A stretch of 64,000 bases of DNA from an uncultured Draconibacterium sp. (GCA_964355945.1 CAYHGE010000002.1:67144-131143), one strand, 5' to 3'. Positions 4,041 to 47,978 are shown, numbered from the stretch's first letter. Numbers and translations are program-made. Notes: generated by a model from the letters alone, not told the origin.

Positions 4041-4065
4041 GTAAAGACGGGGCATGCTCCGTCTC
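4041..4065. repeat. Palindromic hairpin element, copy 1 (GTAAAGACGGGGCATGCTCCGTCTC)
   Basis: Inverted repeat AGACGGGG/CTCCGTCT begins at the base after the rplP stop codon. No T-tract follows it. It belongs to a six-member family in this window. Confidence 0.8.
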
Positions 4066-4079
4066 AAATAAAAAGAAAA

Positions 4080-4301
4080 ATGGAACAGAAAGTTATCAGA
4101 GAATTAACATCGGCCGAAATCCTGGAGAGGATGGATGAAGAGAAGCGTCAGCTTACAAAGCTTAAGCTCAATCATGCTGTATCTCCTTTGGAAAACCCTA
4201 ATAAAATTAAGGCGTACAGAAAAACAATCGCACGTCTTGAGACTGAATTGCGGTGCCGTGTGCTCAAAGGTGAAAAGATCACTAAAACTGGTAAATTATA
4301 G
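4080..4301 (+). CDS. rpmC: 50S ribosomal protein L29 (uL29)
   Basis: 73-aa ORF in the expected operon position, with uL29-like helical sequence. Confidence 0.9.
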   Translation: MEQKVIRELTSAEILERMDEEKRQLTKLKLNHAVSPLENPNKIKAYRKTIARLETELRCRVLKGEKITKTGKL

Positions 4302-4325
4302 TAAAGACGCACCAAAACGCGTCTG
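4301..4325. repeat. Palindromic hairpin element, copy 2 (GTAAAGACGCACCAAAACGCGTCTG)
   Basis: 6-bp stem AGACGC/GCGTCT with an 8-nt loop. Its first G is the last base of the rpmC stop codon. Confidence 0.75.
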
Positions 4326-4350
4326 GTAAAGACGGGGCATGCCCCGTCTC
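4326..4350. repeat. Palindromic hairpin element, copy 3 (GTAAAGACGGGGCATGCCCCGTCTC)
   Basis: Perfect 20-nt palindrome at 4330-4349. It abuts copy 2 and lies 14 nt upstream of rpsQ. Confidence 0.85.
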
Positions 4351-4364
4351 AACAAACAGAAAAA

Positions 4365-4622
4365 ATGGAAACAAGAAACCTAAGAAAAGAAAAAACCGGA
4401 ATCGTTGTCAGCAACAAGATGGAGAAGTCCGTCGTCGTTGAGGTAGAGCGTAAGGTAAAGCATCCTAAATACGGAAAGTTCGTTAAGAAATCATCCAGAT
4501 TCATGGCACACGATGACAAGAATGAGTGCAGTGAGGGTGATAAAGTGCGGATTTCTGAAACCAGGCCGCTGAGTAAAAATAAGTGTTGGAGACTTGTCGA
4601 AATCATTGAAAAGGTTAAATAA
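4365..4622 (+). CDS. rpsQ: 30S ribosomal protein S17 (uS17)
   Basis: 85-aa ORF containing [29 protein letters not shown]. Confidence 0.95.
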
Positions 4623-4624
4623 CT

Positions 4625-4993
4625 ATGATACAACAAGAGTCAAGATTATCAGTAGCAGATAATAGCGGAGCCAAGGAAGTCCTTTGTATAAAGGTACTGG
4701 GCGGAACTCGCAAGCGGTATGCCCGGGTGGGCGACCGGATCATTGTAACGGTAAAACATGCGCTGCCTTCAGGGAATATCAAGAAGGGCACCGTGTCAAA
4801 GGCTGTGGTGGTAAGAACCAAAAAAGAGACACGTCGTGCTGATGGTTCCTATATCCGGTTTGATGACAACGCTGTTGTTTTGCTCAATAATGCTGGTGAA
4901 ATGATTGGTACCCGCATTTTTGGACCAGTAGCCAGGGAGTTACGTGAAAAACAATTCATGAAAATCGTTTCTTTAGCACCTGAAGTGCTGTAA
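4625..4993 (+). CDS. rplN: 50S ribosomal protein L14 (uL14)
   Basis: 122-aa ORF starting [17 protein letters not shown]. Confidence 0.97.
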
Positions 4994-5011
4994 GCATATA
5001 CAAAAACTATC

Positions 5012-5332
5012 ATGCAAAAGTTAAACATACGAAAAGGCGATACAGTAATGGTCATTGCCGGTGATTCGAGAGGGCAGCAGGGGAAAGTGCTGCGTGTCGA
5101 TACAGCTAAATACAAAGCCATTGTTGAAGGTGTTAATATGGTATCGAAGCATACCAAACCTAACACCAAAAGTCCACAAGGCGGCATCGTGAAAATGGAG
5201 GCACCCGTGCATCTTTCCAATTTGAAAATCGTTGACAACTCGGGCAAACCGACACGTATTGGTCGACGGTTGGATGCTAAAACAGAGAAATTGGTTCGCT
5301 ATTCAAAAAAATCAGGGGAGGTTATAAAATAA
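5012..5332 (+). CDS. rplX: 50S ribosomal protein L24 (uL24)
   Basis: 106-aa ORF with the KOW-type motif [19 protein letters not shown]. Confidence 0.94.
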
Positions 5333-5883
5333 TGGATTATTCACCAAGATTAAAAGACAAGTACCTGACAGAGGTTGTTCCTGCGCTGACAAAGCAGTTC
5401 AACTATAAAAGTCCTATGCAGGTTCCACGGATCAGCAAGATCTGTTTAAACCAGGGATTGGGTATTGCCAATACTGATAAGAAATTCATCGACAGCGGTA
5501 TTAATGAAATGACGATGATTACCGGTCAGAAGGCTGTATCGACGAAATCTAAGAAGGATATTTCTAACTTTAAACTTAGAAAAGGCAATCCCATCGGTGT
5601 TCGTGTTACATTACGCGGAGAGCGCATGTATGATTTTCTTGATCGTTTGATTTCTGTTGCTTTGCCTCGCGTACGTGATTTTCGCGGAATCAGCGATAAG
5701 GGATTTGACGGCCGCGGAAATTACACCCTCGGGATTACTGAACAGATTATCTTTCCTGAAATTGACATTGACAAGGTAACCCGTATTAACGGAGTCGATA
5801 TCACCTTTGTGACATCAGCACGCAATGACCGTGAGGCGCATGCCTTGTTGAAAGAATTTGGAATTCCTTTTAAAACAAAGTAA
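5332..5883 (+). CDS. rplE: 50S ribosomal protein L5 (uL5)
   Basis: 183-aa ORF with uL5 sequence; its start overlaps the rplX stop. Confidence 0.95.
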
Positions 5884-5887
5884 AAAT

Positions 5888-6157
5888 ATGGCAAAAGAAT
5901 CTATTAAAGCCAGAGAGCGCAAACGTGAACGCATGGTTGCAAAGTTCGCTGAAAAGCGTAAGGCACTTAAAGAAGCCGGTGATTATATCGGTCTGCAGAA
6001 GTTACCAAAAAATGCATCACCCATTCGTCTTCATAATCGTTGCAAACTGACTGGACGACCAAAAGGATACATGCGACTGTTTGGAGTTTCTCGTATTAAT
6101 TTCAGGGAAATGGCCAACAACGGACTGATCCCTGGCGTTAGAAAAGCCAGCTGGTAA
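5888..6157 (+). CDS. rpsN: 30S ribosomal protein S14 (uS14), long form
   Basis: The ORF-track start at 5858 overlaps rplE. The ATG at 5888 gives [13 protein letters not shown]..., a typical S14 N-terminus, and an 89-aa protein. Confidence 0.92.
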
Positions 6158-6175
6158 TAAGTTAGTAATTTAGTA

Positions 6176-6200
6176 GTAAGGACGCACATTGTTGTGTCTC
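6176..6200. repeat. Palindromic hairpin element, degenerate copy 4 (GTAAGGACGCACATTGTTGTGTCTC)
   Basis: Shares the GTAAgGACG...GTCTC frame. The stem GACGCA/TGTGTC needs one G-U pair. It lies between rpsN and rpsH. Confidence 0.55.
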
Positions 6201-6226
6201 AACAGTAACAATAAAAAACAAAATAA

Positions 6227-6625
6227 ATGGTTACGGATCCCATTGCAGATTATTTGACGAGAATCAGGAATGCCGTTATGGCCAACCATCGGGTTGTAGA
6301 GATTCCAAAGTCGAAAATCAAGGAAGAAATCACCCGGATTCTCTTTGAAAAAGGGTATATCCTCAATTATAAAATTGAGAATGAACCTCGTCCAGGAAAT
6401 ATCAAGATTGCATTGAAATACCATCCGGTGTCTAAAGTGTCAGCTATCAATAGTCTTGTTAGAATATCAAAGCCAGGCTTGAGGAAGTATGTTGACAATG
6501 ATCATTTACCCAGGGTACTGAATGGTTTAGGAATAGCAATCCTGTCAACTTCACACGGTGTTATGACCGATAAGGAAGCCCGCACACAGAATGTAGGCGG
6601 TGAGGTTTTATGTCACATCAGTTAA
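6227..6625 (+). CDS. rpsH: 30S ribosomal protein S8 (uS8)
   Basis: 132-aa ORF starting [16 protein letters not shown]. Confidence 0.96.
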
Positions 6626-6641
6626 TTAGGAGAGTATAAAC

Positions 6642-7199
6642 ATGTCAAGAATAGGAAAATTACCAATTGCAATACCCGCTGGCGTGCAGATTTCTGTCTC
6701 CGACACCAACCTGGTGACTGTCAAAGGAAAGTTGGGTCAGCTTCAACAGCAGGTGGATCCGAAAATCACATTGAAAATTGAAGGTGACGTTCTCAGTGTT
6801 GAACGACATTCCGAAGACCGGGATGATCGTGCAAAACACGGCCTTTATCGTTCGTTGGTTTTCAATATGGTTAAAGGTGTATCAGAAGGGTTTACAACGG
6901 TTCAGGAATTAGTTGGAGTTGGTTATAAAGCTACGGGAACTGGACAATTTCTAGAACTTTCTCTTGGATTTTCTCATAATATTTTATTGGAACTTCCGGA
7001 TGCAATTCATGTTGAGACAACGGCAGTAAAGGGTAAGAATAACTCTATCATTTTGAAATCCGTTGACAAGCAGTTGCTTGGACAGGTTGCAGCGAAAATT
7101 CGCTCATTCCGTCGGCCGGAACCATATAAGGGAAAAGGTATTCGCTTCCAGGGTGAAGAGATTAAGAAGAAGGCTGGTAAATCTGCAGCCGGACAGTAA
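6642..7199 (+). CDS. rplF: 50S ribosomal protein L6 (uL6)
   Basis: 185-aa ORF starting MSRIGKLPIAIPAGV. Confidence 0.95.
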   Translation: MSRIGKLPIAIPAGVQISVSDTNLVTVKGKLGQLQQQVDPKITLKIEGDVLSVERHSEDRDDRAKHGLYRSLVFNMVKGVSEGFTTVQELVGVGYKATGTGQFLELSLGFSHNILLELPDAIHVETTAVKGKNNSIILKSVDKQLLGQVAAKIRSFRRPEPYKGKGIRFQGEEIKKKAGKSAAGQ

Positions 7200-7256
7200 C
7201 ACTACATTTTAATGCAGTGTTAAAAGGATTATAATAATCGTTATAAACTGAATACA

Positions 7257-7619
7257 ATGGCTATTAAGAGTAAAAAAGAGTTTCGCAGGTTCAGGATCAA
7301 AAAAAGGATACGTAAAATCGTAGAAGGGACTCCTGACAGGCCTCGCATGACTGTGTTCCGTAGTTGTAAAGGTATTTACGTGCAACTGATCGATGATCAG
7401 GCTGGTAAAACACTTGTTGCTGCTTCGTCCATGGAAAAAGGAATGACAGACCAGAAGGGTACCAAGACTGACATGGCAAAGAAAGTTGGGAAAGTTGTAG
7501 CTGAAAAGGCTATTCAGGCTGGTATTGAAAAGGTTGTTTTTGATCGGAATGGTTATTTATATCATGGCAGGGTAAAATCTTTGGCCGATGCTGCCAGGGA
7601 AGGTGGCCTAAAATTCTAA
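7257..7619 (+). CDS. rplR: 50S ribosomal protein L18 (uL18)
   Basis: 120-aa ORF with the C-terminal [26 protein letters not shown]. Confidence 0.95.
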
Positions 7620-7626
7620 GGAAGAT

Positions 7627-8145
7627 ATGACAAACGTTAATGTAAAGAGAGTAAAGTCGAGCGAAATCGAATTTAAAGATCGCCTTGTTAGCATTCAGCG
7701 CGTGACCAAGGTAACCAAGGGAGGCCGTACATTCAGCTTTTCTGCCATTGTGGTGGTTGGTAATGAAAACGGTGTTGTTGGTTATGGGCTTGGAAAGGCA
7801 AAGGAAGTTACGGCAGCTATTGCCAAAGGTGTTGACGACGCTAAAAAGAACCTGATAAAAGTGCCTATTTTAAAAGGCACGATCCCTCATGATCAGTTGG
7901 GCAAATATAGTGGTGCGCTTGTATATCTTAAACCTGCTGCGCCTGGAACCGGAGTTATTGCCGGGGGTGCTATGCGTGCAGTGCTGGAAAGTGTTGGTGT
8001 GAAGGACGTTCTTGCGAAGTCAAAAGGGTCATCTAATCCGCACAGTGTTGTGAAAGCAACGATCAATGCCTTGATCAAGTTGAGGGATCCTTATACGATC
8101 GCACAACTCAGAGGAATTGAACTGAATCAAGTATTTAATGGCTAG
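7627..8145 (+). CDS. rpsE: 30S ribosomal protein S5 (uS5)
   Basis: 172-aa ORF containing [22 protein letters not shown]. Confidence 0.96.
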
Positions 8146-8174
8146 TTTTATATTATTAAAGGCTGTTTTGAGCA

Positions 8175-8354
8175 ATGGAAAAAATTAAAATAACACAGGT
8201 ACGCAGTGGAATCGGAAGACCTTTGCGTCAGAAACGTACCCTCGAAGCATTAGGGTTAAAACGGATTCGCCATACAGTGGAACATGATGCTACCCCTCAG
8301 ATTTTGGGCATGGTAAACAAGGTACTGCACCTGGTTACATTTGAAAAAGTATAA
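8175..8354 (+). CDS. rpmD: 50S ribosomal protein L30 (uL30)
   Basis: Hand-translated 59-aa ORF (MEKIKITQVRSGIGRPLRQKRTLEALGLKR...). It is below the ORF-track length cutoff and sits at the expected site between rpsE and rplO. Confidence 0.9.
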   Translation: MEKIKITQVRSGIGRPLRQKRTLEALGLKRIRHTVEHDATPQILGMVNKVLHLVTFEKV

Positions 8355-8375
8355 CAAAAGAAAAACGATACTGAA

Positions 8376-8822
8376 ATGGATTTAAGCAATCTTAAGCCGG
8401 CAAAAGGTTCGACAAAGAAGGTAAAGCGCATTGGCAGGGGACAAGGTTCCGGACACGGTGGCACATCTACCCGTGGACATAAAGGAGCAAAGTCACGTTC
8501 CGGATACTCCAAAAAGGTGGGGTTTGAAGGTGGTCAGATGTCTCTGGTCAGACGCGTACCCAAATTCGGGTTCAAGAATTTCAACCGGGTTGAATATAAA
8601 GGAATAAATCTTGACGTTTTGCAACAGATCGCTGAAAGAAAGGAAGTCACTGTTATCACACGTGATGTACTTATTCAAAGCGGATATGTTTCGAAAAATG
8701 ATCGGATTAAAATTTTGGGACGTGGTGAATTGAAGGCCAAACTCGAAATTACCGTCCATGCTTTCTCGGCTACCGCCCGAAAAGCAATAGAAGAATTAGG
8801 TGGAGTAGCTAATACACTTTAA
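8376..8822 (+). CDS. rplO: 50S ribosomal protein L15 (uL15)
   Basis: 148-aa ORF with a Gly/Arg/Lys-rich N-terminus (GRGQGSGHGGTSTRGHKG). Confidence 0.95.
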   Translation: MDLSNLKPAKGSTKKVKRIGRGQGSGHGGTSTRGHKGAKSRSGYSKKVGFEGGQMSLVRRVPKFGFKNFNRVEYKGINLDVLQQIAERKEVTVITRDVLIQSGYVSKNDRIKILGRGELKAKLEITVHAFSATARKAIEELGGVANTL

Positions 8823-8832
8823 ACTTGTTTGA

Positions 8833-10203
8833 ATGAAAAAACTGATTCAAACCATTCGAAACATCTGGAAGATTGAAGATCTCCGTAAGAGAATTCTCTA
8901 TACAATCGGAATCATCCTGATTTATCGTCTGGGATCTTATGTCGTACTTCCTGGTGTTGACCCAAGTATGCTTGCCAGCCTTCAAAATCAAACCAAATCG
9001 GGGTTGTTGGGGCTGTTAAATATGTTTTCCGGTGGTGCATTTTCCAATGCTTCTATTTTCGCGTTGGGAATTATGCCTTATATATCTGCCTCCATCGTGA
9101 TGCAGTTGCTGGGTATGGCTATCCCATACTTCCAGAAACTGCAGAAAGAGGGAGAAAGCGGACGAAAGAAAATCAACCAGATGACCAGGTATCTCACTGT
9201 CATCATTTTAATTTTCCAATCGCCTGCTTATATTGCTAACCTTGCTGCTCAATTACCCGCAGAGGCAATATCCCCATTTAACCCGAATGTAACACACCAT
9301 TCTGTATTTTCATTTTTTGGAATATCCTCCATTATTATCCTTACTGCAGGTTCTCTTTTTGTGATGTGGCTTGGTGAACGTATCACCGATAAGGGAATAG
9401 GAAATGGTATCTCGCTGATCATTATGATTGGAATTATAGCACGTTTGCCTTTTGCATTGTTTGGTGAACTGGTTTCAAGAATGGAGCAGAAAGGCGGTGG
9501 TCTTGTGTTCTTTGTTGTGGAAATTGCATTTCTTGTTCTTGTGGTCTTGGTTACGATACTTCTTGTTCAGGGAACACGCAAAATTCCGGTTCAATATGCA
9601 AAACGTATCGTTGGCAATAAACAATATGGGGGAGTGCGTCAATATATCCCATTAAAGGTGAATGCGGCCGGTGTAATGCCAATCATTTTTGCCCAGGCTA
9701 TTATGTTTCTGCCATTAACCATTGCCGGTTTTGCCAGCAACGAAACACTTACAGGGTTTGCCAGGGTATTTACAGATATCAACGGACCTGTATATAATCT
9801 AACATTTTTTATTCTTATTATCCTCTTTACCTATTTTTACACGGCTATCACGGTTAACCCTAATCAGATGGCTGAGGATATGAAGAAAAACGGTGGTTTT
9901 ATACCAGGTGTTAAACCAGGTAAAAAAACTGCTGAGTTCATTGATGACGTGATGTCGCGTATTACTTTGCCGGGTTCAATTTTTCTTGGCTTTGTTGCAG
10001 TCATGCCTGCATTGGTGGGGATGGTTGGAGTTACATCACAGTTTGCTCAGTTCTACGGAGGAACTTCTTTGCTGATTCTGGTTGGGGTTGTACTTGATAC
10101 ATTACAGCAAATTGAAAGTCACTTGCTGATGCGTCATTATGATGGACTGACTAAATCCGGCAGGATAAAAGGACGTTCTTCTTATTCCGTTACCGGGCAG
10201 TAG
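8833..10203 (+). CDS. secY: Preprotein translocase subunit SecY
   Basis: 456-aa polytopic membrane ORF at the end of the spc operon, with typical SecY sequence. Confidence 0.96.
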   Translation: MKKLIQTIRNIWKIEDLRKRILYTIGIILIYRLGSYVVLPGVDPSMLASLQNQTKSGLLGLLNMFSGGAFSNASIFALGIMPYISASIVMQLLGMAIPYFQKLQKEGESGRKKINQMTRYLTVIILIFQSPAYIANLAAQLPAEAISPFNPNVTHHSVFSFFGISSIIILTAGSLFVMWLGERITDKGIGNGISLIIMIGIIARLPFALFGELVSRMEQKGGGLVFFVVEIAFLVLVVLVTILLVQGTRKIPVQYAKRIVGNKQYGGVRQYIPLKVNAAGVMPIIFAQAIMFLPLTIAGFASNETLTGFARVFTDINGPVYNLTFFILIILFTYFYTAITVNPNQMAEDMKKNGGFIPGVKPGKKTAEFIDDVMSRITLPGSIFLGFVAVMPALVGMVGVTSQFAQFYGGTSLLILVGVVLDTLQQIESHLLMRHYDGLTKSGRIKGRSSYSVTGQ

Positions 10204-10206
10204 TGT

Positions 10207-11001
10207 ATGTTTAACAAGCAGATGACGGTAAAATCGGAAGAGGAGATTGAATTACTCAGAGAGAATGCCATCATTGTTAGCAAGACACTGGCCGAAGTAG
10301 CAAAATATATAAAACCTGGTGTCAGTACGTTGGCACTTGACAAAATTGCTGAAGATTTTATCCGTTCCGAAGGAGCAATCCCGGGGTTTAAAGGATATAG
10401 AGGTTTTCCGGGAACCTTATGTGTTTCCACCAACGAGGAGGTGGTACATGGAATACCGGGTAACAGAGTTCTTAGAAATGGTGATATAGTTTCGATTGAC
10501 TGCGGATGTCAAAAGGATGGTTTTTTTGGAGATTCTGCCTATACTTTTCCGGTAGGAGAGGTGTCTGGTGAGGTTCTTAACCTGTTGAAACGAACAAAAG
10601 AATCCTTGTACAGGGCAATAGAATTTGCTGTTGCCGGAAGGAGGGTTGGCGATATCAGTGCTGCTGTTCAGGAATATGTTGAAGGTTTTGGCTATTCAGT
10701 CGTTAGAGAACTTGTAGGTCATGGAATTGGAAATCAACTGCACGAAAAACCGGATGTTCCGAATTATGGCAAACGGGGTGCTGGAGTGAAAATGCCTGTC
10801 GGACTTACAATTTGCATTGAGCCCATGATTAACATGGGTGCAAAGACGGTTGTTCAGGATAGTGATGGATGGACGATTCGAACTGCTGATAAAATGCCTT
10901 CGGCTCATTTTGAGCTTACGGTTGCAGTTAGAAAGGAAAAGGCTGAAATCCTCTCCACTTTCCGTTATATTGAAGAAGTTTTAGGAAATAGTAGTATATA
11001 G
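10207..11001 (+). CDS. map: Type I methionine aminopeptidase
   Basis: 264-aa ORF with metal-ligand context (VHGIP, DCG, GHGIG, EP..). It follows secY directly. Confidence 0.93.
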
Positions 11002-11002
11002 T

Positions 11003-11221
11003 ATGGCAAAACAATCATCAATACAACAAGACGGCACGGTCATTGAATCCCTCGGCAATGCAATGTTCCGTGTTGAATTAGAAAATGGGCATGTTATAAC
11101 GGCTCATATTTCTGGCAAAATGCGGATGCACTACATTAAAATTCTACCCGGAGACAGGGTGAGGATTGAAATGTCACCATACGATTTATCAAAAGGAAGA
11201 ATTACGTTCAGGTATCAATAG
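11003..11221 (+). CDS. infA: Translation initiation factor IF-1
   Basis: 72-aa ORF with S1-like IF-1 sequence (...[25 protein letters not shown]...). Confidence 0.96.
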
Positions 11222-11239
11222 ACATAAAGAAAACGTAGA

Positions 11240-11356
11240 ATGAAAGTAAGAACATCAATTAAGAAAAGATCTGCTGATTGTAAGATCGTTCGTAGAAATG
11301 GCAAATTATATGTCATTAACAAAAAAAATCCGAAGTTTAAACAAAGACAAGGTTAA
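11240..11356 (+). CDS. rpmJ: 50S ribosomal protein L36 (bL36)
   Basis: Hand-translated 38-aa [41 protein letters not shown]. It is absent from the ORF track. Confidence 0.92.
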
Positions 11357-11384
11357 GGTATTACAAACATAAAATTGGATTAAT

Positions 11385-11765
11385 ATGGCCAGAATTGCAG
11401 GTATTGACTTACCTAAAAATAAACGGGGTGAAATTGGGCTGACCTATATCTTTGGTATTGGAAGAAGCAATGCTCAAAAGATCCTTGATGTGGCAGGCGT
11501 GGACAGGAATAAAAAAGTTCAGGACTGGAACGACGAGGAGCAGAATAAGATCCGTGCTGTCATCAATGATAGTTTTAAAATCGAAGGAGCGTTGCGCTCT
11601 GAGGTTCAAATGAATATCAAACGATTGATGGATATTGGATGCTATCGCGGAATCCGCCACCGTTTAGGATTGCCTGTTCGCGGACAGAGTACCAAGAACA
11701 ATGCACGTACCCGCAAGGGCAGGAAAAAAACCGTTGCCAATAAGAAGAAGGCAACCAAGGGTTAA
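11385..11765 (+). CDS. rpsM: 30S ribosomal protein S13 (uS13)
   Basis: 126-aa ORF starting [14 protein letters not shown]. Confidence 0.96.
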
Positions 11766-11792
11766 TCGTTCATGAACGTAGTAAATTAATAT

Positions 11793-12182
11793 ATGGCAAA
11801 GACTGAAAAAAGTTCAAAGAAAAGGGTTGTAAAGGTTGACACAATAGGAAAAGCTTATGTCAACGCATCATTCAACAACCTCATTATTACCCTTACCAAC
11901 AATGGCGGACAAGTTATCAGCTGGTCTTCAGCGGGTAAAATGGGTTTTAAGGGTTCCAAAAAGAATACGCCTTATGCAGCTCAGATGGCTGCACAGGATG
12001 CCTCCAAAGTAGCGTTTGACCTTGGACTTCGCAAAGTAAAGGTATTCATAAAAGGACCTGGTGCAGGTCGCGAGTCGGCGATTCGCACACTTCATACCGC
12101 CGGTATTGAGGTTATGGAGATTGTGGACATCACACCGCTTCCTCATAACGGATGCCGTCCGCCGAAAAGAAGAAGAGTTTAA
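11793..12182 (+). CDS. rpsK: 30S ribosomal protein S11 (uS11)
   Basis: 129-aa ORF ending [18 protein letters not shown]. Confidence 0.96.
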
Positions 12183-12203
12183 CACTTAATTATATCAATC
12201 ACC

Positions 12204-12809
12204 ATGGCAAGATACATTGGCCCAAAATCCAGAATTGCAAGAAGATTCAGAGATCCTATTTTTGGTCCTGATAAGAGTTACGAAAAGAAGAATTATCCAC
12301 CGGGAATGCATGGCCAAACCAAGCGCAGAGCGAAGGTTTCGGAGTACGGCACCCAGCTTATGGAAAAACAGAAGGCTAAATATACCTATGGTATCCTTGA
12401 GCGTCAGTTTAGAAATATATTTTTGAAGGCTGCACGCAAAGGTGGTGTTACAGGTGAGGTATTGTTACAACTTATTGAATCACGCCTTGATAATGTAGTT
12501 TACCGAATGGGAATTTCACCAACACGCGACGGAGCCCGGCAGTTGATCGGACACAGACACATCCTTGTGAATGGAAAAGTCGTGAACATTCCTTCCATGG
12601 AACTTCGCCCCGGAGATCTGGTTTCAGTTCGAGAGCGTTCAAAATCCATGGAAATTATTACCAACTCTTTGTCTGGACGTGGAAACCAATATCCCTGGCT
12701 TGAATGGGACGGTGGAATGATGACAGGTAAATTTATGAGTTATCCTGAGCGCGACCAGATTCCTGAAAACATAAAGGAACAACTGATCGTCGAATTGTAT
12801 TCGAAATAA
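12204..12809 (+). CDS. rpsD: 30S ribosomal protein S4 (uS4)
   Basis: 201-aa ORF starting [15 protein letters not shown]. Confidence 0.96.
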
Positions 12810-12817
12810 TTTTACGG

Positions 12818-12842
12818 GTAGAGACGCAGCATGCTGCGTCTC
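12818..12842. repeat. Palindromic hairpin element, copy 5 (GTAGAGACGCAGCATGCTGCGTCTC)
   Basis: Perfect 22-nt palindrome at 12821-12842, between rpsD and rpoA. Relative to copy 3 the internal stem bases differ but pairing is preserved. Confidence 0.85.
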
Positions 12843-12875
12843 CACGCGATATATCTAACAACAAAAATAAACAAT

Positions 12876-14503: not shown

Positions 14504-14545
14504 AAAAGGATGACATGAGAAATTATGTTGTCCTTTTTTGTTTAT
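14504..14545 (+). terminator. Probable intrinsic terminator closing the ribosomal protein cluster
   Basis: Imperfect hairpin AAAGGATGACAT...ATGTTGTCCTTT followed by TTTGTTT, 35 nt after the rplQ stop. Confidence 0.6.
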
Positions 14546-37471: not shown

Positions 37472-39679
37472 CTATCTGATCAGGACCACATTTCCGGTCA
37501 GGGTGGAATTTTCAGGTGGTGAAAGCGAGGACTGATATACAACGACAAAAACATAACTCCCTTCAGGGCATAACTCACCCTTCAGGGTGCCATCCCACCC
37601 GGGTTCGGGCTGTGTGGAAGTGAAAACCAGTTGGCCGGAACGATTGTAAATGTTCATGCTGTATTGCCTGATATTATTTGTAAAAGGTCGAAAGTTGTCA
37701 TTCAATCCATCTCCATTTGGGGTAAAAGCGTTGGGCAACCGGATCACGATTTCGCACTCCGTTCCGGTCTTAATGAAAATTGAAGTGCTGTCGGAGTTGT
37801 CACATCCATGGGAATCAGTATAACGATAAGAAATGAGGTGGTTTCCTGTTCCACTGATCAGCGGGTCTATACTTGCAGCGGCAGTACCATTGATCCTGTA
37901 TTCTCCTCCCGCCGGGTTTCCACCGGTGAGTACCAATGCGGGTTCATTGTAACAGATTGTGTCAAACGCTGCAAGGGATACCTGGGGTGGAGGATAGAAA
38001 AAGATTTGAAGTGCAGATTCCTGGCCGTCACCACAAGTGTTGGTTCCATAAACCGCCAGCGTTCCCGAGGTGGCGGATGTATCGAATGTGACCAGGGAAC
38101 TTGTGTCATTGGAAATAACAGTGGCACCCGTGCCTGAATAGGACCAGGTGTATGAAGAGGCACCGGGGTCGTGCCTGATGGTGTAAGTCATGGCAACTCC
38201 TCCTTCACAGAAAACATTGTTGCCGCTTATCTTCCCGGGCTGCCCGGGAATTCTTTTAACCTGGAAATTGAGGGACTGGGTAATGGACCTTGAAACATAC
38301 CACCAAGAATTGATTGTATTCGTATCACCGGTTTCGATATCCCACAAATGGCATCCGGTCAGGTCGGTACAGCCATTGAGGTTGGCAGAGATGACCCCGG
38401 GCAACAACCTGTCGTCCCAGTATATCTCTGGTTTTGGTCCCGGGGGCCTCACCACCTCCACGATATAACCATTGTCGTTGTATTCAATGTCATAGATCGG
38501 AAGATGGGTGATGCCGCGGATGAACCTGACTGTTGATCTGACTGTTACACCATTGGTCACCGGGTTCCCCAACCCGTCGTTCCCATTCCAGTGGATGATG
38601 TTATACCCATTTCCCCCTGGATTGGCCAGGATATTGGCTGTGAGTTTTACATCCCGAGGGTCCGCCCCGGGACCTGGAACAACTTCGACCAAAAGCTCAA
38701 TCAGTCCGTCGTGTGATACCCGCACCCCCAGGTCCACTGAACCGGTTGCACAATCGTTGGTTACCATGATTGGAAGGTTGATGCCCGGTTTTGCCCTTCC
38801 GGTAGGGAAAATTGTACTGTCGGGGTCTGTCAAAAAAACCTTGTATTGAGGATATGTGTGGAACCCGGTGTGTGATTGCCTGTCTGTGGCAATATTTCCG
38901 GTGGTTGAGCATCCTGTCTCATTGCTGGAAATAGAGAACGTCCCTCCGACAAACCCATTGCAGTTAACGCTTGTTACAATGCTGTCGTCAGACAGGATAT
39001 ATACAGTTCCAAAGAAGCGGCTGTCAGTCGGCGGAGGTTCCACCACTCCGCAATTAAATTGCCAGGCCTTTGACCATAAACGACCCGTTTTCGGCTTGCC
39101 GGAGGCATCCAGCACCGTTATATCAAAGAATTCAAACCTGACATACCTGCTCATGGAATAGGTGCCAGCCAGGTCGGGAGGGTAATAGAATTCGAGTGAA
39201 TAATTCCCGCGGATAGGAGAAGGATACTCAATGGGATTATACCCGTTGTCTGCCGGAAACGGACCGATTGTGTCCTGGTCATATGTGCTGATAAATCCCG
39301 GGCCTGATTTGGGAAGCTGAAATGGACCAAGCACAATATTGCCTGCAGGATCTCTTAACTGGAACTGAACAATTACGGTAGAATCAACCTGCAGGATTTT
39401 ACCCAGGCCAAAACAAATTTTTTCAGCCGGATCGGCGATGTAAATATTAATCCTGAATTCAGGACTGGCATTGAAGAACCCGAAATCGTTGCGTGACTTG
39501 TCAATACAGAGTTTCCCCTGTGCAGTATCAAAAGGTGCAACCTGTTTTGTTCCTTCTGAAAACCCGGCCAGGGAATGGAGGAGGAGCAAAAGAATGACAG
39601 AAAGCCAGATGTTAAAAAGGGGTTTCACTCCCTGTATAGCACTTGATTCCCAGTGATGAAAATTGTTGTTTGATTTCAT
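37472..39679 (-). CDS. Large secreted protein with a gliding-motility-type (T9SS type-B, CHU_C) C-terminal domain
   Basis: The C-terminus reads LPNAFTPNGDGLNDNF...YNRSGQLVF...WDG. The track start at 39844 is buried in the activase gene. Plausible starts are the ATG at 39679 or the GTG at 39628, which immediately precedes the signal peptide KPLFNIWLSVILLLLLHSLAG. Confidence 0.7.
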   Translation of the reverse strand: MKSNNNFHHWESSAIQGVKPLFNIWLSVILLLLLHSLAGFSEGTKQVAPFDTAQGKLCIDKSRNDFGFFNASPEFRINIYIADPAEKICFGLGKILQVDSTVIVQFQLRDPAGNIVLGPFQLPKSGPGFISTYDQDTIGPFPADNGYNPIEYPSPIRGNYSLEFYYPPDLAGTYSMSRYVRFEFFDITVLDASGKPKTGRLWSKAWQFNCGVVEPPPTDSRFFGTVYILSDDSIVTSVNCNGFVGGTFSISSNETGCSTTGNIATDRQSHTGFHTYPQYKVFLTDPDSTIFPTGRAKPGINLPIMVTNDCATGSVDLGVRVSHDGLIELLVEVVPGPGADPRDVKLTANILANPGGNGYNIIHWNGNDGLGNPVTNGVTVRSTVRFIRGITHLPIYDIEYNDNGYIVEVVRPPGPKPEIYWDDRLLPGVISANLNGCTDLTGCHLWDIETGDTNTINSWWYVSRSITQSLNFQVKRIPGQPGKISGNNVFCEGGVAMTYTIRHDPGASSYTWSYSGTGATVISNDTSSLVTFDTSATSGTLAVYGTNTCGDGQESALQIFFYPPPQVSLAAFDTICYNEPALVLTGGNPAGGEYRINGTAAASIDPLISGTGNHLISYRYTDSHGCDNSDSTSIFIKTGTECEIVIRLPNAFTPNGDGLNDNFRPFTNNIRQYSMNIYNRSGQLVFTSTQPEPGWDGTLKGELCPEGSYVFVVVYQSSLSPPENSTLTGNVVLIR

Positions 39680-40580
39680 GAAGATCTTCGGGTGACGGGA
39701 TGATAAAATCTTCTGTATAATATGTTTTACCGATGAGGTTGTATTTTTCTCTTCCAAGGTGATGAAGTGGAAGGATGTTGATCTCATTGCGCCCGGTTGA
39801 TTGAATAAAACGGGCGGTGGAAGAGATGTTGGCGGTATCATCATTAAATCCGGGGACTACAGGTAGTCTGAAAATCAGGCGTCCTGCAAATTCTCTGGCA
39901 ATTCGGCGGGCATTTTCAAGGATTAGGGGAACAGACGGACAAGCGGACATGTGGACGGGTGGACGGGCGGACAAAGTGGGTGAGTCTGTCATAGACTTCA
40001 AATCGAAAAATATCCAGTCGATATAGGGTAAGGATTTTTTTAAATTTTCCCAGGGAACATTGCCACAGGTTTCAACTGCTGTATGAATGTAGGCATCATG
40101 GCATGTTTTCAGGATATCAGATGCAAACTCCGGTTGCATAAATGGTTCTCCACCGGTAAGTGTAATTCCACCTCCGCTACCCCAGTATTGGCGGTCGCGT
40201 TTGATCCTGGCATACAGGTCTTCTGCAGAAATTTCATATCCTCCGATGTTAAGCGCCCCGGAACAACATGCTTTGGCACAATCGTGAGTCAGACAAAGTG
40301 CGCAAAACTTCCTGTCAAAGTGCAATTGATCACCTTCGATGTTGCAACTGGAGGATATTGCTCCTTTTGAACAAGCATGCATACACAAACCGTCGAATGT
40401 GCATTTTGAGAGGCGGTAAAGCGGCTCAGGAAAAAAGGAAATTCCTTCCGGGTTGGAACACCAGGAACATTCCAGTGAACAACCCTTGAAAAAAATTAAA
40501 GTACGGCAGCCGGGACCGTCATGAACAGAGAACCCCTGGATATCGAAAATAATGCCACTGCTCAGTTTTGATTGTTCCAT
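39612..40580 (-). CDS. Glycyl-radical enzyme activating enzyme (radical SAM) with an extra ferredoxin-like di-cluster insert
   Basis: The ATG at 40580 gives MEQSKLSSGIIFDIQGFSVHDGPGCRT. It has the motif CSLECSWC (CX3CX2C) plus CTFDGLCMHAC and CALCLTHDCAKACC. An octamer array is embedded in the coding sequence. Confidence 0.85.
   Translation of the reverse strand: MEQSKLSSGIIFDIQGFSVHDGPGCRTLIFFKGCSLECSWCSNPEGISFFPEPLYRLSKCTFDGLCMHACSKGAISSSCNIEGDQLHFDRKFCALCLTHDCAKACCSGALNIGGYEISAEDLYARIKRDRQYWGSGGGITLTGGEPFMQPEFASDILKTCHDAYIHTAVETCGNVPWENLKKSLPYIDWIFFDLKSMTDSPTLSARPPVHMSACPSVPLILENARRIAREFAGRLIFRLPVVPGFNDDTANISSTARFIQSTGRNEINILPLHHLGREKYNLIGKTYYTEDFIIPSPEDLHEIKQQFSSLGIKCYTGSETPF
39927..39982 (+). 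repeat. Octamer tandem array inside the activase CDS: GGGAACAG, ACGGACAA, GCGGACAT, GTGGACGG, GTGGACGG, GCGGACAA, AGTGGGTG
   Basis: GGAC recurs at 39937, 39945, 39953, 39961 and 39969, an exact 8-bp period. The array encodes DSPTLSARPPVHMSACPSVP on the minus strand. Confidence 0.85.
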
Positions 40581-40819
40581 TGAAAGTCGGCGCATTTGCT
40601 GGCGATCATGTCGGGATAGGCCAGGATGGTCCCCTGGCATTTCCCCAGGTACTCCTTTTCAGCTGTATAACTTTTACAGAACCTGCACTTGGGGATTTGT
40701 TTTCCTTTTTCACAAAGCGGTTTATCAGGACTGATTTTTTCCTTACTGAGTTTGCAAATCCCCCTGAAAACATCCACAGGCAGGTAATAGGTGCAATCTT
40801 TACAAAAGAGGTCTTCCAT
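40562..40819 (-). CDS. Small 8-Cys iron-sulfur subunit of a glycyl radical enzyme (HPAD gamma-subunit-like)
   Basis: 85-aa ORF with Cys at 6, 9, 22, 36 and 45, 48, 61, 76. It lies between the GRE and its activase and overlaps the activase start by 19 nt. Confidence 0.75.
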   Translation of the reverse strand: MEDLFCKDCTYYLPVDVFRGICKLSKEKISPDKPLCEKGKQIPKCRFCKSYTAEKEYLGKCQGTILAYPDMIASKCADFQWNNQN

Positions 40820-40841
40820 GATTCTATTATTGTTTGGTCAG

Positions 40842-43511
40842 CTAAAATTCCTCATATTCTGTTCTGGAAATCACTTCATCCTGGATCTGTTTTCCAAGTT
40901 CAACCCAGTACTGGGTAAATCCGGCAACGCGGACAAGCAAGCTCCTGTATTTATCCGGGTCGGCCTGTGCCTGCTTAAGCATCCGTGAATCGACGATGTT
41001 GAATTGCACGTGGAAGCCACCTTTACGAAGATAGGCACGGATCAGTTCCAGAAATTTCCGTGATCCTTCCCTGCCTCTGACAACGGAAGGATGGATCTTC
41101 ATGTTGAGTTGTGAATTCTGTGATTCGGCGTGGTTCCAGCACGTAGCAGAGTTAAACAGGGCATAAGGACCATTCTTGTCAGTGCCGGGATATGCTGAAA
41201 CGGATCCGTCCGAAAAAGTTGTGCCGCTTAACCGCCCGTCGGGGCCGGCCAATGTAACGGCCCCCATTGGTCCATGAGTGGATACAGATATCTGGCAGGC
41301 ATACATCGGCTGATCGTAGAGCGACCGGTAGTTATGTGCCATTTTACAGAACCACTCTTCCCATTCCTTAAGGATGTTATCAACAAATGGGTTGTCGTTA
41401 CCGAATTTAGGTGCATCTAGACTTTGCCGGTGGATTTTTTTCCAGAGATGATGGTCCTCGCCGGGAACCTGATCGATTAACGACCAGGAACCGGTTTCCT
41501 TCGCAGTTTTGTATCCGAAATTGGCCAGGATTGCCTTTCGGTATTCATCCAGGGTGTAATTATGCTCTGCAAAGATGTTTTTTTTCATCGAACCCAGTGA
41601 ATTTACCAGGTTCGTTGTACCACAGGTCTCGATATTGAAAGTTGTATTGTAGCGGCAGCCCATTTGCCCGATATCTTTTCCTTTTGTAAGGCAATCAGGC
41701 TTCAGCATTGAATTGACCAGAGAGGGGGAAATTTTCCGCCAGGCGTCATGCTGGATGTTGTTTGCCAGGGTCAGCACATGACAGGCCCGGCTGAAATAAT
41801 CCTTAAAGGCCTGCCAGATTTCGGCGTAATCATCCAGGTTATATCCATGCGGCGGAAAAATCCGTTGACCCGTTCGCATATCCATGCCATTGAAAATGAC
41901 AACTTCCAGTAATTTCGGAAGGTTCAGAAAGTGTACGCCAACGCTGGTGGCAGGAGCAGAACCTCCTGGTATCCAGTGAATTTCATTGTCAAGTTCAAGT
42001 GGCATCCAGCTGCCGGGAGATGTTTCAAGGCAGCCTCCTATTGCCCATGCGCGGGCCTCTTCGAGATGCAATCCCTCATGGCCATAGTTTCCAAGCAGAA
42101 ACTCCATTGCTACCTGGTTGTTAATCCATGCAGGGTAGCCGGTACCGGTTTTTGTACATTCGATACCTTTTAAAAGAAACTCTTCAGGAAGTTTTTCATC
42201 GTACAGGAGAGACAGTGTGGGTTGCGGGGTATCGCAGGTTATCCCGGCCTCAAGGATGAGAATTTCAAGATCATTGGCAGCAGATGTGCCATCTTTTAGC
42301 AGTCCGCCGAGACACAGGTTGTTGAATGTATTCCCGGAGAGGACTCCGCCAACCACGCCCATCGATGCAAAACAGTCTATTTCAGTGAATTTGATCCGCA
42401 TGCACTCCAGCAATTCGAGGGTTTTTTCGCGGTCGATCACGCCATTTTTCATATCACGTTGCCAGAATGGAAAGAGTACCTGACCTACACGGCCGGGGGA
42501 TAGCCCCGATATGGCATCTTCATTCAGGACTGCCACATGGAAGATCCACAGCATTTGCAATGCGTCATGAAAAGACCGGGGAGGCTTACAGGCGATCCAG
42601 GCAAGCCGTTCGGACATCTCCAGGTATTCAGTTTTTTGCCTGGCTTCAGTTTCGATCGATGCAAGAAAATCTGCTTCTGCTGCATAATTTTCAATCCAAT
42701 GTTTGATGCCTTCAAGTGTGATGATAACAGCGTTGTAGAAATAGATGCGGTCCATGTCAGGATATCCGGCCACTTCTGCAATTCTGTCATGGCAGCTTTG
42801 GATTATCCCATCGATACCAAACTGAAGCGGATAATAATAGTTCATAACCTCCCGCCCCTGCGGAAGTGTATAGCCGGAATCGAACATGCAGATTACCGAG
42901 CGCATCAGTGCTTCCTTTTCCTTGTAACCGGGAACAAGCTGCTCATATTTGTGGCCTACATCGTCAACCGATTTGTTTTTCCATTTTTTTGCCACTTCCA
43001 GCATGGCAGGCAGTTCTTCCAGTCGTAACCCGAATTTTCCGGCGATGGATATCACATTGCCAGCACTCTTTGTGACATTGCCTCCTCCTTTGCCCATGGT
43101 CGTAAAACTGTCGGCGGTGAGCTTTCCGGATTCCTGGGCCTCTTTGTAAAGGTCATCCTCGGCAGCCATGAAAAACGCTTCCGACAGCCAGGGCATGGGG
43201 TAGGAGCCGCGGAGATAGGATGCTTTGCCCATGGTTAGCAGTTCGCCGGGATAAATTACCGGGGTAAGATGTTCAAAACCAGCTTTCAATGCCTCTGCAC
43301 GCCGGACAATTGGTATTTCTCCATCCAGGGCCTCCCATCGACGGGTGTACCAATATGGAAATTCTATGGAAACCGAGGATTTGGCTTCAAAGTAAAGTTC
43401 TCTGGCTGCATGAGCCCTGGATGTTGGCTGTCGTTTGCTCCCGCAGGATGTGACCTCGCCGTCGGGCTTGTTGCCGTAATAGTTGATATGAGTCTGGGCC
43501 GTGGTGTTCAT
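40842..43511 (-). CDS. Glycyl radical enzyme, 4-hydroxyphenylacetate (arylacetate) decarboxylase-like large subunit
   Basis: 889-aa ORF with the glycyl motif LLVRVAGFTQYW near the C-terminus and the thiyl loop AIGGCLETS. Confidence 0.85.
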   Translation of the reverse strand: MNTTAQTHINYYGNKPDGEVTSCGSKRQPTSRAHAARELYFEAKSSVSIEFPYWYTRRWEALDGEIPIVRRAEALKAGFEHLTPVIYPGELLTMGKASYLRGSYPMPWLSEAFFMAAEDDLYKEAQESGKLTADSFTTMGKGGGNVTKSAGNVISIAGKFGLRLEELPAMLEVAKKWKNKSVDDVGHKYEQLVPGYKEKEALMRSVICMFDSGYTLPQGREVMNYYYPLQFGIDGIIQSCHDRIAEVAGYPDMDRIYFYNAVIITLEGIKHWIENYAAEADFLASIETEARQKTEYLEMSERLAWIACKPPRSFHDALQMLWIFHVAVLNEDAISGLSPGRVGQVLFPFWQRDMKNGVIDREKTLELLECMRIKFTEIDCFASMGVVGGVLSGNTFNNLCLGGLLKDGTSAANDLEILILEAGITCDTPQPTLSLLYDEKLPEEFLLKGIECTKTGTGYPAWINNQVAMEFLLGNYGHEGLHLEEARAWAIGGCLETSPGSWMPLELDNEIHWIPGGSAPATSVGVHFLNLPKLLEVVIFNGMDMRTGQRIFPPHGYNLDDYAEIWQAFKDYFSRACHVLTLANNIQHDAWRKISPSLVNSMLKPDCLTKGKDIGQMGCRYNTTFNIETCGTTNLVNSLGSMKKNIFAEHNYTLDEYRKAILANFGYKTAKETGSWSLIDQVPGEDHHLWKKIHRQSLDAPKFGNDNPFVDNILKEWEEWFCKMAHNYRSLYDQPMYACQISVSTHGPMGAVTLAGPDGRLSGTTFSDGSVSAYPGTDKNGPYALFNSATCWNHAESQNSQLNMKIHPSVVRGREGSRKFLELIRAYLRKGGFHVQFNIVDSRMLKQAQADPDKYRSLLVRVAGFTQYWVELGKQIQDEVISRTEYEEF

Positions 43512-44420: not shown

Positions 44421-44455
44421 AAAACCTTCCAGGTTTTTAAAACCTGGAAGGTTTC
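44421..44455 (-). terminator. Probable intrinsic terminator after the YqgE/AlgH gene
   Basis: 14-bp perfect stem (44422-44435 pairing with 44441-44454) with a 5-nt loop, followed on the - strand by TTTTAT. Confidence 0.6.
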
Positions 44456-45091: not shown

Positions 45092-46480
45092 ATGGCAAGG
45101 TCAAGCAGACAGTCAACATTTCTTGAGTTACGCGAAAAATTTCCATTTTTTATCTTTGAAAAGCAGGAGTACGAATTGACTGCCCTGGGTCTTCATATCT
45201 GTTATACCTTTAACCTCGGAGATCAATACAAGTTTTACCCGACGCTGTTTATACCACGGAAGTCTTTCTTCCTTGCCGATGAAAAAATTGCAAACAGTCT
45301 GGATAACATCGTCTTGCATCTCGGAATGATCGAACTGATCAGTTATTGGAAAGCCACCTGTTCGCCCTCCCTTATTATCAAACCATTTGGACTTCGTCCC
45401 GAACAAATTAGTTGGTGGAAAAAACTGTATTTTCATGGCCTTGGAGAATTTTTTTACCTGAATTCCATTGATACCAGTGAAGACAGCTTTATGGATGTGA
45501 AAGTTGCCTCACAAGTATTTTTGCCTGTTGAGGATTTTCACCTTGTAGATAATCTGCTTATCCCGGTCGGCGGAGGCAAAGATTCGGCTGTGACACTCGA
45601 ACTGCTTGGGGCAGAACCCGGATGTTTGCCACTGATCATGAATGCGCGGGGAGCAAGCCTTGCAACCATTGATACAAAGGGTTTTGCGATGGATCAACTG
45701 GTGGAAATCCAGCGGACCATTGATCCGACATTGTTTCGGTTAAATGAAACTGGTTTTTTAAACGGTCATACCCCCTTCTCTGCGTTGCTGGCTTTTGTAA
45801 CTGTCCTTGCAGCGGTGGTTACCGGTTACAGGAATATTGCCTTGTCGAATGAATCGAGCGCCAGCGAAGCGACCATTGAAGGAACTCAGATCAACCACCA
45901 GTATTCAAAATCGTTTGAGTTTGAATCCGATTTTCGTGAATATGTAAAACAATGGATTAGTCAGGATATCAATTATTTCAGTTTTCTTCGACCGCTTAAT
46001 GAGTTGCAGATCGCCTCCCTGTTTGCTCAGTTTCCCCGGTACCATCCTGTTTTTAAAAGTTGCAATGCAGGAAGCAAAACCGATTCATGGTGCGGAGTTT
46101 GTGCCAAATGTCTCTTTACCTATATTATTTTATCTCCCTTTCTTGATGAGGACCATTTGGTGAGAATTTTCGGGAAAAGTCTTTTTTCTGACAGCAGCCT
46201 GAAGCCAATTTTAGATCAGCTTGCAGGCATTGCAGATGAGAAACCCTTCGAATGTGTGGGAACAATCAGGGAGGTGAACCTGGCATTGTGTGAAACCATC
46301 AGGCAGAATAAAGATACTAAATTGCCTTTTCTGCTTGAATATTACAGGAATTCTGAAAATTTTTTGCAATATGACAAGATGGATTTTGCTCGTGAAATGA
46401 GTCGGATTTCGGAGGAGCATTATTTGATGCCGGGTATTCGGGAAATTCTAGAAAATTTCCATCCGACTTTATATCATTGA
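45092..46480 (+). CDS. PP-loop-like ATP-utilising protein, candidate UDP-MurNAc-L-Ala-L-Glu epimerase (MurL)
   Basis: 462-aa ORF with the motif IPVGGGKDSAVTLELL. It lies immediately upstream of a stand-alone MurD-like ligase. The MurL assignment rests on context and recollection. Confidence 0.45.
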   Translation: MARSSRQSTFLELREKFPFFIFEKQEYELTALGLHICYTFNLGDQYKFYPTLFIPRKSFFLADEKIANSLDNIVLHLGMIELISYWKATCSPSLIIKPFGLRPEQISWWKKLYFHGLGEFFYLNSIDTSEDSFMDVKVASQVFLPVEDFHLVDNLLIPVGGGKDSAVTLELLGAEPGCLPLIMNARGASLATIDTKGFAMDQLVEIQRTIDPTLFRLNETGFLNGHTPFSALLAFVTVLAAVVTGYRNIALSNESSASEATIEGTQINHQYSKSFEFESDFREYVKQWISQDINYFSFLRPLNELQIASLFAQFPRYHPVFKSCNAGSKTDSWCGVCAKCLFTYIILSPFLDEDHLVRIFGKSLFSDSSLKPILDQLAGIADEKPFECVGTIREVNLALCETIRQNKDTKLPFLLEYYRNSENFLQYDKMDFAREMSRISEEHYLMPGIREILENFHPTLYH

Positions 46481-46518
46481 ATGGTATATGCATCTATAAT
46501 AATTGATAATCAATTGGT

Positions 46519-47940: not shown

Positions 47941-47961
47941 AGACGGGGCATGCCCCGTCTG
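47937..47961. repeat. Palindromic hairpin element, copy 6 (GTAGAGACGGGGCATGCCCCGTCTG)
   Basis: Perfect 20-nt palindrome at 47941-47960, identical to copy 3. It overlaps the stop codon (47938-47940) of the MurD-like gene. Confidence 0.85.
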
Positions 47962-47978
47962 TACATAGAAATGTTAAA

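Follow-up and report, generated by a model that had tools for sequence, protein, structure and literature searches.

Short palindromes at ribosomal protein gene junctions of an uncultured Bacteroidota-like genome as probable members of a RAYT-associated repeat family

Short palindromic hairpins lie between genes of the ribosomal protein operon in a 64-kb stretch of DNA from an uncultured Draconibacterium sp. (GCA_964355945.1, CAYHGE010000002.1:67144-131143; the whole stretch is referred to here as the window, and positions are counted from its first nucleotide). An earlier note on this DNA had described five copies at ribosomal protein gene junctions and proposed that they could be REP-like hairpins or miniature mobile palindromes, or binding sites for a dimeric protein. 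Here, we examine these elements alongside loci from scans of other genomes and metagenomes (designated by L-numbers, such as L001 and L179) and conclude that they most probably are repetitive extragenic palindromes (REPs) of a family already catalogued for REP-associated tyrosine transposases (RAYTs).

Hairpin elements in the window

The coordinates of the five operon copies were verified, and the flanking genes were verified by Pfam (L16, L29, S17, S14, S8, S4, and RpoA). A sixth copy, not in the earlier note, lies outside the operon, and a covariance model built from unrelated genomes and run across the whole window with filters off gave no copies beyond these six:

4041-4065 (full extent 4041..4068), plus strand: REP copy 1, rplP/rpmC; core GTAAAGACGGGGCATGCTCCGTCTC; covariance model 37.2 bits, E = 4e-10
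4301-4325, plus strand: REP copy 2, rpmC/rpsQ; GTAAAGACGCACCAAAACGCGTCTG; degenerate, 6-bp stem and 8-nt loop, folding free energy (dG) -9.1 kcal/mol
4326-4350 (full extent 4326..4353), plus strand: REP copy 3, rpmC/rpsQ; core GTAAAGACGGGGCATGCCCCGTCTC; 42.5 bits, E = 6.5e-12
6176-6200 (full extent 6176..6203), plus strand: REP-like hairpin, copy 4, rpsN/rpsH; core GTAAGGACGCACATTGTTGTGTCTC; degenerate, 10.1 bits, E = 0.8 (marginal)
12818-12842 (full extent 12818..12845), plus strand: REP copy 5, rpsD/rpoA; core GTAGAGACGCAGCATGCTGCGTCTC; 43.8 bits, E = 2.4e-12
47937-47964, plus strand: REP copy 6, gap between a Mur-ligase gene and a glucosaminidase-LysM gene; GTAGAGACGGGGCATGCCCCGTCTGTAC; 42.3 bits, E = 7.4e-12

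The copies are 25 to 28 nt long, within the 20 to 50 nt expected of a REP, and fold into stems of 6 to 9 bp (as DNA, the palindromic arms reach 11 bp) with dG values of -8 to -20 kcal/mol. The pattern AGACG-N4-20-CGTCT is matched five times in the window against 0.21 expected, and none of 100 shuffles reached five matches; copy 6 accounts for one of the five. In all six copies the GTAR end lies on the coding strand; the 5' foot reads GTAG in two and GTAA in four, the latter falling outside the strict GT[AG]G consensus. The 3' ends of copies 1 to 6 are CAAA, GGTA, CAAC, CAAC, CCAC, and GTAC, so that none of the six retains an intact CTAC foot, which marks them as single-foot or decayed derivatives. 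Curated Rfam covariance models at the gathering score gave no match anywhere in the window.

The distances from stop and start codons given in the earlier note also hold, with the five operon copies ending 14 to 39 nt ahead of the next ATG. Copy 1, which begins 1 nt past a TAG, has a GTAA foot and an 8-bp stem that includes one G.U pair and is capped by a CAUG loop (dG, -11.7 kcal/mol). The first G of copy 2 is the final base of TAG, and the TAA in its foot supplies a second in-frame stop; this copy scores weakly in the covariance model (E = 0.007 on the minus strand and 3 on the plus strand) and is orthologous to GTAAAGACGCAC-N4-GTGCGTCTC hairpins of four related loci (L125, L128, L130, and L179). 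It forms a head-to-tail tandem with copy 3, a perfect 20-nt palindrome, AGACGGGGCATGCCCCGTCT (dG, -15.8). Copy 4 starts 18 nt past a TAA and combines a GTAA foot with a GGACGCA/UGUGUCU stem that includes two G.U pairs and pairs on the sense strand only (dG, -8.4 sense and -4.2 antisense); its membership of the REP family is probable, not certain. Copy 5 begins 8 nt past a TAA and has a GTAG foot, a perfect 22-nt palindrome, GAGACGCAGCATGCTGCGTCTC, and the degenerate 3' foot CCAC (dG, -17.2). Copy 6 (dG, -20.1) comes near to a double foot (GTAG...GTAC), and its GTAG foot supplies the TAG stop codon of the Mur-ligase gene. That gene (window 45092-47940) lies directly downstream of a MurL-type epimerase gene (Pfam MurL_N and MurL_epimerase_C; called genes of L001).

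Stable GC-rich stem-loops placed after stop codons could be transcription terminators or attenuators that partition the operon. However, a T-tract follows none of the six copies, a terminator scan reports none at these sites, A-rich leaders come next, and essential genes lie downstream of each hairpin. The scan instead reports a canonical intrinsic terminator just after rplQ (window 14504-14537; a 15-pair stem, then TTGTTTATT), which marks the operon end and shows that this organism uses ordinary terminators of hairpin plus T-tract. We therefore regard termination or attenuation as very improbable, in agreement with the earlier note, which had held that these are not intrinsic terminators.

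A repeat family shared across phyla and the RAYT-like genes linked to it

To place the elements in a wider context, GTDB was scanned, with one genome per species, using the pattern GTARAGACG-SN-GCATGC-NS-CGTCT, in which complementarity was not imposed. This yielded at least 120 loci in at least 8 phyla; the groups among the matches listed are Acidobacteriota, Bacteroidota (many of them Bacteroidales), Ignavibacteriota, Chloroflexota, Gammaproteobacteria, Patescibacteria, Rhodothermales, and KSB1. Very many other copies thus exist, where the earlier note had said that a lack of other copies and of conservation in relatives would speak against its proposal. The complete family unit is a 28-nt palindrome, GTAGAGACG-N10-CGTCTCTAC. 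Among the 134 copies in the matches listed, the foot is GTAG in 125 and the 3' foot is CTAC in 71, and the free stem positions are complementary in 125 (12.5% expected by chance), with five main inner-stem variants (CA..TG, GG..CC, GT..AC, CG..CG, and GA..TC). In an alignment of 63 sequences, the stem is 98% paired and three variable pairs show 21 to 32 double changes each. Other metagenome-assembled genomes (MAGs) hold 3 to 14 loci each among the matches listed, and the window holds its six intergenic copies in 64 kb.

A constant foot and outer stem combined with an inner stem that need only pair is characteristic of recognition by a protein at the base of a folded hairpin. The same feature bears on the suggestion, also made in the earlier note, that the sites are double-stranded DNA operators of a dimeric regulator. 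Perfect palindromes with a conserved outer half-site are what such a regulator would bind, yet an inner stem that is free to vary while staying complementary indicates a folded hairpin and not a duplex site. Furthermore, the sites lie at gene 3' ends, not at promoters, and within coding sequences across at least 8 phyla, and they are linked to a class of enzymes acting on single-stranded DNA. We consider that operators have next to no chance of being the explanation.

The tie to this enzyme class comes from a search with E. coli RayT and then with a custom profile built from the first matches, which placed a RAYT-like open reading frame (ORF) in 8 of the 120 loci among the matches listed. These ORFs carry the HuH motif (MPNHIH), WQxRFHDRIIR, and YIxxNP. 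Four were scanned against NCBIfam NF047646 (REP-associated tyrosine transposase), with E values of 1e-12 to 3e-17 that fall under the equivalog cut-off; Pfam Y1_Tnp gave weak matches or none; and for L067 the ORF can be aligned to 4er8, a TnpA-REP structure, through its HuH and WQxRF...YIxxNP motifs. All eight RAYT-like genes contain the palindrome in frame, directly after HuH, and four of the eight loci have further copies outside the gene, 12 to 173 nt from its ends. Copies on other contigs occur in two of the MAGs, and the main inner-stem variant there is the same as at the RAYT locus. The peptide encoded by the palindrome is found in at least 90 of the 120 closest protein-database homologues, some of which the JGI has named “REP element-mobilizing transposase RayT.”

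Such repeats have been described before. Quentin et al. 2018 (BMC Genomics 19:475) describe RAYT subclass 2.4, equal to Bertels group 4, with NH[IFV]H, WQ, and YIxNNP motifs, in Cyanobacteria, Bacteroidetes, and scattered phyla. According to these authors, the subclass has “double foot” REPs (5' GT[AG]G and 3' C[TC]AC) and is unique in that tnpA-REP itself contains an in-frame REP, located between HuH and Y. Among the entries of their Additional file 2 are GTAGAGACGCACGGCCGTGCGTCTCTAC from Chloroflexus aggregans and GTAGAGACGTTGCATGCAACGTCTCTAC from Cyanothece, and the presence of GTAGAGACG...CGTCTCTAC there places the window elements in a catalogued REP family. A full-text literature search for GTAGAGACG returned unrelated primer sequences only, and Nunvar 2010 contains no GTAGAGACG-type sequence. 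We conclude, at a probability of about 0.85, that the window elements are REPs of the GT[AG]G-footed family GTAGAGACG-N10-CGTCTCTAC, the cognate repeat of subclass 2.4 RAYT/TnpA-REP HuH-tyrosine enzymes. The “REP-like” and “miniature mobile palindrome” suggestions of the earlier note were to this extent well founded. That the GTAGAGACG foot and stem stay constant across phyla and are carried within the RAYT gene fits co-transfer of the enzyme with a seed repeat, and if the REP assignment is right, a subclass 2.4 RAYT carrying or flanked by the GGGCATGCCC or CAGCATGCTG variant would be expected in the source lineage.

Other arrangements of the repeat were seen in these genomes. Four REPs are clustered within 300 to 900 nt at L084:60-360 and L012:358-1265, an arrangement like that of bacterial interspersed mosaic elements (BIMEs); the REPs of L084 recur about every 109 nt, and in L012 incomplete REPs accompany full-length ones next to the RAYT gene. 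In Ignavibacteriota and Bacteroidota MAGs, an in-frame REP lies in the C-terminal domains of large secreted proteins (L077:2573-5419, minus strand; L091:1-1371, plus strand; L106:251-2461, plus strand; L107:3031-4674, minus strand). By sequence, these resemble the sorting domains of type IX secretion, and the L091 protein has a second REP-like insert, VETHSHASL.

Gain, loss, and turnover at ribosomal protein junctions

A metagenome scan with L29 provided 80 related loci with 79 to 97% L29 identity. Ribosomal protein junctions in these relatives are mostly short and of fixed length, and eight vary (S3/L16, L16/L29, L29/S17, S14/S8, L6/L18, S13/S11, S11/S4, and S4/RpoA). The gap ranges from 6 to 74 nt at rplP/rpmC and from 2 to 129 nt at rpmC/rpsQ, and both may be empty, hold this REP, or hold another hairpin, many of these GTA[AG]-footed. 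Many relatives have GTAAAGACGC...GCGTCTC with differing interiors at rpmC/rpsQ, in tandem in L165 and L182 and as an array in L179; a more distant clade has GAAGAGACG...CGGTCTCT there, and many relatives have nothing. At rplP/rpmC, several relatives have a 6-nt gap and others have GTAA- or GTAG-footed hairpins with unrelated stems. The S14/S8 and S4/RpoA junctions vary likewise, the TAG of the foot being the S14 stop codon in L190 and L191. The earlier note had raised the question of whether orthologous junctions are empty: many are, and others hold this REP or other hairpins. Hairpins at these junctions are thus gained, lost, and replaced among relatives. In L097, a distant Bacteroidales operon, there is none at rpsD/rpoA, and the sole REP lies downstream of rplQ.

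Two further arrangements at rpmC/rpsQ are recorded here. In L179 (10219-10340), a single REP precedes three or four ∼38-nt repeats, CGCACCGYAGTGCGTCTTGACAARCCAACAA, in which the inner hairpin and spacer are tandemly amplified. In seven relatives (L125, L127, L128, L130, L132, L138, and L181), the 3' arm CGTCTC is followed by ttaaN-GAGAC-aaa-ATG, which is absent from the window copy; judging from these sequences, GTCTC could pair either within the REP or with the GAGAC before the rpsQ start.

The earlier note had also considered five copies unusual for a ribosomal protein operon, and this proved overstated. Five of the six window copies fall within the operon, which makes up 23% of the window, a proportion that looks significant by length alone. 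However, about one in three of the window's gene ends also belongs to the operon, and when loci (the tandem pair counted as one) are set against gene 3' ends, p is ∼0.06 by our own estimate. Densities in the relatives are similar, with 17 per 537 kb inside the cluster and 5 per 247 kb outside it. REPs are thus not clearly enriched in the operon once gene-end density is counted.

Position and structure are more regular than sequence. A covariance model run on the relatives' loci gave 40 sites, 33 of them at ribosomal protein junctions, and 34 of the 40 score higher on the sense strand. Where a junction has an element, the first one begins between 3 nt before and 13 nt after the end of the stop codon. 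Structure exceeds that of shuffled controls at L16/L29, L29/S17, S14/S8, L6/L18, and S4/RpoA (at L29/S17, 37 of 58 unique spacers fold at -8 kcal/mol or better, versus 8.2 expected), and no excess was found at six other junctions tested. The five enriched junctions are the same five that have hairpins in the window. At L6/L18, the window (7198-7222) has an unrelated AT-rich hairpin, AACACTACAT-TTTA-ATGCAGTGTT, that overlaps the rplF stop codon; relatives often have GC-rich hairpins there, including REPs.

This regularity is an argument for a different explanation, in which the hairpins are selected intercistronic RNA elements of the ribosomal protein operon and REPs are merely raw material that was recruited. 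The role of such elements would be to determine mRNA stability segment by segment, or to uncouple translation, in a Bacteroidota lineage without Shine-Dalgarno sequences. In its favor are the structural excess confined to five of the junctions tested, the occupation of the same five in the window, one of them by an unrelated AT-rich hairpin, and the keeping of position while sequence differs. In addition, the copy 1 orthologue in L179, at rplP/rpmC, shows a compensatory C-G to T-A change (AGAC/GTCT in the window, AGAT/ATCT in L179), and copies 1 and 4 retain pairing on the sense strand only. However, many relatives have empty junctions, so the hairpins are dispensable; an identical element follows the Mur-ligase gene and occurs in coding regions and in many phyla; and the recurrence can be explained by shared ancestry together with site permissiveness.

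One strand comparison also goes against it. Imperfect junction hairpins of the relatives have 35 G.T against 47 A.C mismatches (p = 0.22), which is no sense-strand G.U excess; some of the A.C counts arise from extension of the stem into the foot. Junction folding energies are slightly better overall for antisense than for sense, a test that we rejected because sense spacers are A-rich and antisense spacers are U-rich and gain G.U pairs. With G.T and A.C mismatches balanced in the relatives, no independent evidence for selection at the RNA level was found. The proposal of the earlier note that complementary stem interiors reflect selection on structure is only partly supported: the differing interiors are mainly distinct REP sub-variants, each palindromic from birth, and one genuine in situ compensatory change, that in L179, was seen. 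On balance, we find it unlikely that the hairpins are selected RNA elements.

A related possibility is that REP hairpins have been co-opted in this Bacteroidota lineage as functional punctuation of the ribosomal protein mRNA, with a stable stem-loop kept among relatives directly after the stop codon at L16/L29, L29/S17, S14/S8, L6/L18, and S4/RpoA despite turnover of its sequence. We put this forward tentatively and hold it to be doubtful. If true, stoichiometry would be tuned through segmental mRNA stability or termination-reinitiation in an organism without Shine-Dalgarno-driven coupling. Connected with this is the idea that REPs preferentially land or are retained at stop codons because the foot contains TAG or TAA, which would explain the sense orientation at 34 of 40 sites. 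This orientation may come from retention of the foot TAG/TAA as a stop codon, from selection on RNA, or, by analogy with IS200/IS605, from insertion biased to the lagging-strand template; GC skew is positive on the plus strand.

Under the REP assignment that we prefer, the history of the copies can be outlined from what is recorded for the family. In other RAYT groups, experiments have demonstrated single-stranded hairpin binding, dependence on GTAG, and cleavage at a nearby CT, and Corneloup 2021 reports an in vitro cleavage and strand-transfer assay of a RAYT on a single-stranded hairpin. The palindrome would fold as a hairpin on single-stranded DNA, and the RAYT would read the 5' foot and conserved stem base and cut and rejoin nearby. 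In this way the repeat would reach new sites, typically just downstream of genes, and copies would have settled in the few ribosomal protein junctions that tolerate added sequence. They would then be transcribed along with the operon and fold into stem-loops whose free energies run from -8 to -20 kcal/mol; relative to the end of the stop codon, the foot begins anywhere from 3 nt upstream to 18 nt downstream. Mobility mediated by a RAYT in this lineage, as well as any effect at the RNA level, is inferred. E. coli REPs transcribed within operons reportedly stabilize upstream mRNA against 3' exonucleases (malE-malF; Newbury 1987), and those no more than 15 nt from a stop codon reportedly can lower expression (Liang, Rudd and Deutscher 2015). 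By analogy, REP hairpins here would most likely impede 3'-to-5' exonucleases and mildly modulate expression of the flanking cistrons; four of the five occupied window sites are within 15 nt of the stop codon.

Several points weigh against the REP assignment or its mobile component. Neither the 64-kb window nor the 10 kb around the operon in the 80 relatives holds a RAYT gene detectable with E. coli RayT and the custom profile. In the S. maltophilia system, a change at position 4 of GTAG abolished cleavage, and the GTAA-footed window copies without an intact CTAC may be immobile fossils. REP transposition has never been demonstrated in vivo, and the recurrence of hairpins at the same five junctions could mean functional selection, not mere tolerance.

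These operons illustrate that even a compact ribosomal protein operon tolerates gain, loss, and tandem duplication of REPs at a few junctions. The empty, REP-filled, and other-hairpin versions of the same gap in close relatives constitute a natural experiment on the effect of a REP on its neighboring cistrons.

Elsewhere in the window, a minus-strand DUF179 gene is followed after 16 nt by a perfect palindrome with 16-bp arms (44422-44454; AAACCTTCCAGGTTTT-T-AAAACCTGGAAGGTTT), which is flanked by A and T runs on both strands and is probably a bidirectional terminator. A glycyl-radical enzyme cluster occupies the minus strand at ∼39600-43500 (L001:3094-6993) and comprises a PFL-like/Gly_radical large subunit, a small subunit with a 4HPAD_g_N domain, and a radical-SAM activase.

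Comparison with known repeats

With subclass 2.4 REPs, the family seen here shares the GTAGAGACG-N10-CGTCTCTAC core, the GT[AG]G foot, a perfect palindrome, in-frame insertion in a RAYT gene (in the other genomes only), and occurrence in scattered phyla. Unlike the double-foot REPs of that subclass, the window copies mostly carry a GTAA foot, no longer have the 3' CTAC, and are not accompanied by a RAYT gene in the window; their host is an uncultured Bacteroidota-like MAG.

Di Nocera, De Gregorio and Rocco 2013 (BMC Genomics 14:522) defined super-families of GTAG-tagged REPs, including SMAG repeats. The features in common are a short stem-loop with a GTAG tag; a preference for sites downstream of ORFs, where the adjacent genes run in one direction or converge; sub-families whose stems differ by complementary changes; copies that are clustered or follow one another head to tail; and an occasional intragenic copy. 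Their survey placed repeats of the GTAG type in Proteobacteria, Cyanobacteria, Chloroflexi, and the PVC group and, in Bacteroidetes, found CGTC repeats only, whereas the GTAG-type family described here occurs in Bacteroidota, Acidobacteriota, Ignavibacteriota, and Patescibacteria.

Like the subterminal hairpins of IS200/IS605 insertion sequences, these would be single-stranded DNA hairpins recognized by a Y1 HuH transposase, with a guide tetranucleotide 5' of the hairpin; unlike in IS200/IS605, no transposase lies between two ends, and each element is a lone 25- to 28-nt hairpin. A miniature inverted-repeat transposable element, defined by terminal inverted repeats, an internal segment, and a target site duplication and typically 100 to 400 bp long, was rejected as a candidate, as the hairpin is the whole element and no duplicated flanks are visible. 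Like E. coli REPs and BIMEs with RayT (the REPtron), the family has a GTAG foot followed by a hairpin and a homologous HuH-tyrosine enzyme. Those of E. coli are longer and usually form inverted pairs, and their stem is bulged and imperfect, whereas those of the window are short, perfect palindromes that stand singly or head to tail. The elements are an ordinary, tidy example of a catalogued repeat and not a new kind of element. They widen the range of the REP family catalogued for subclass 2.4 RAYTs to uncultured Bacteroidota and several other phyla, an extension that matters little alone.

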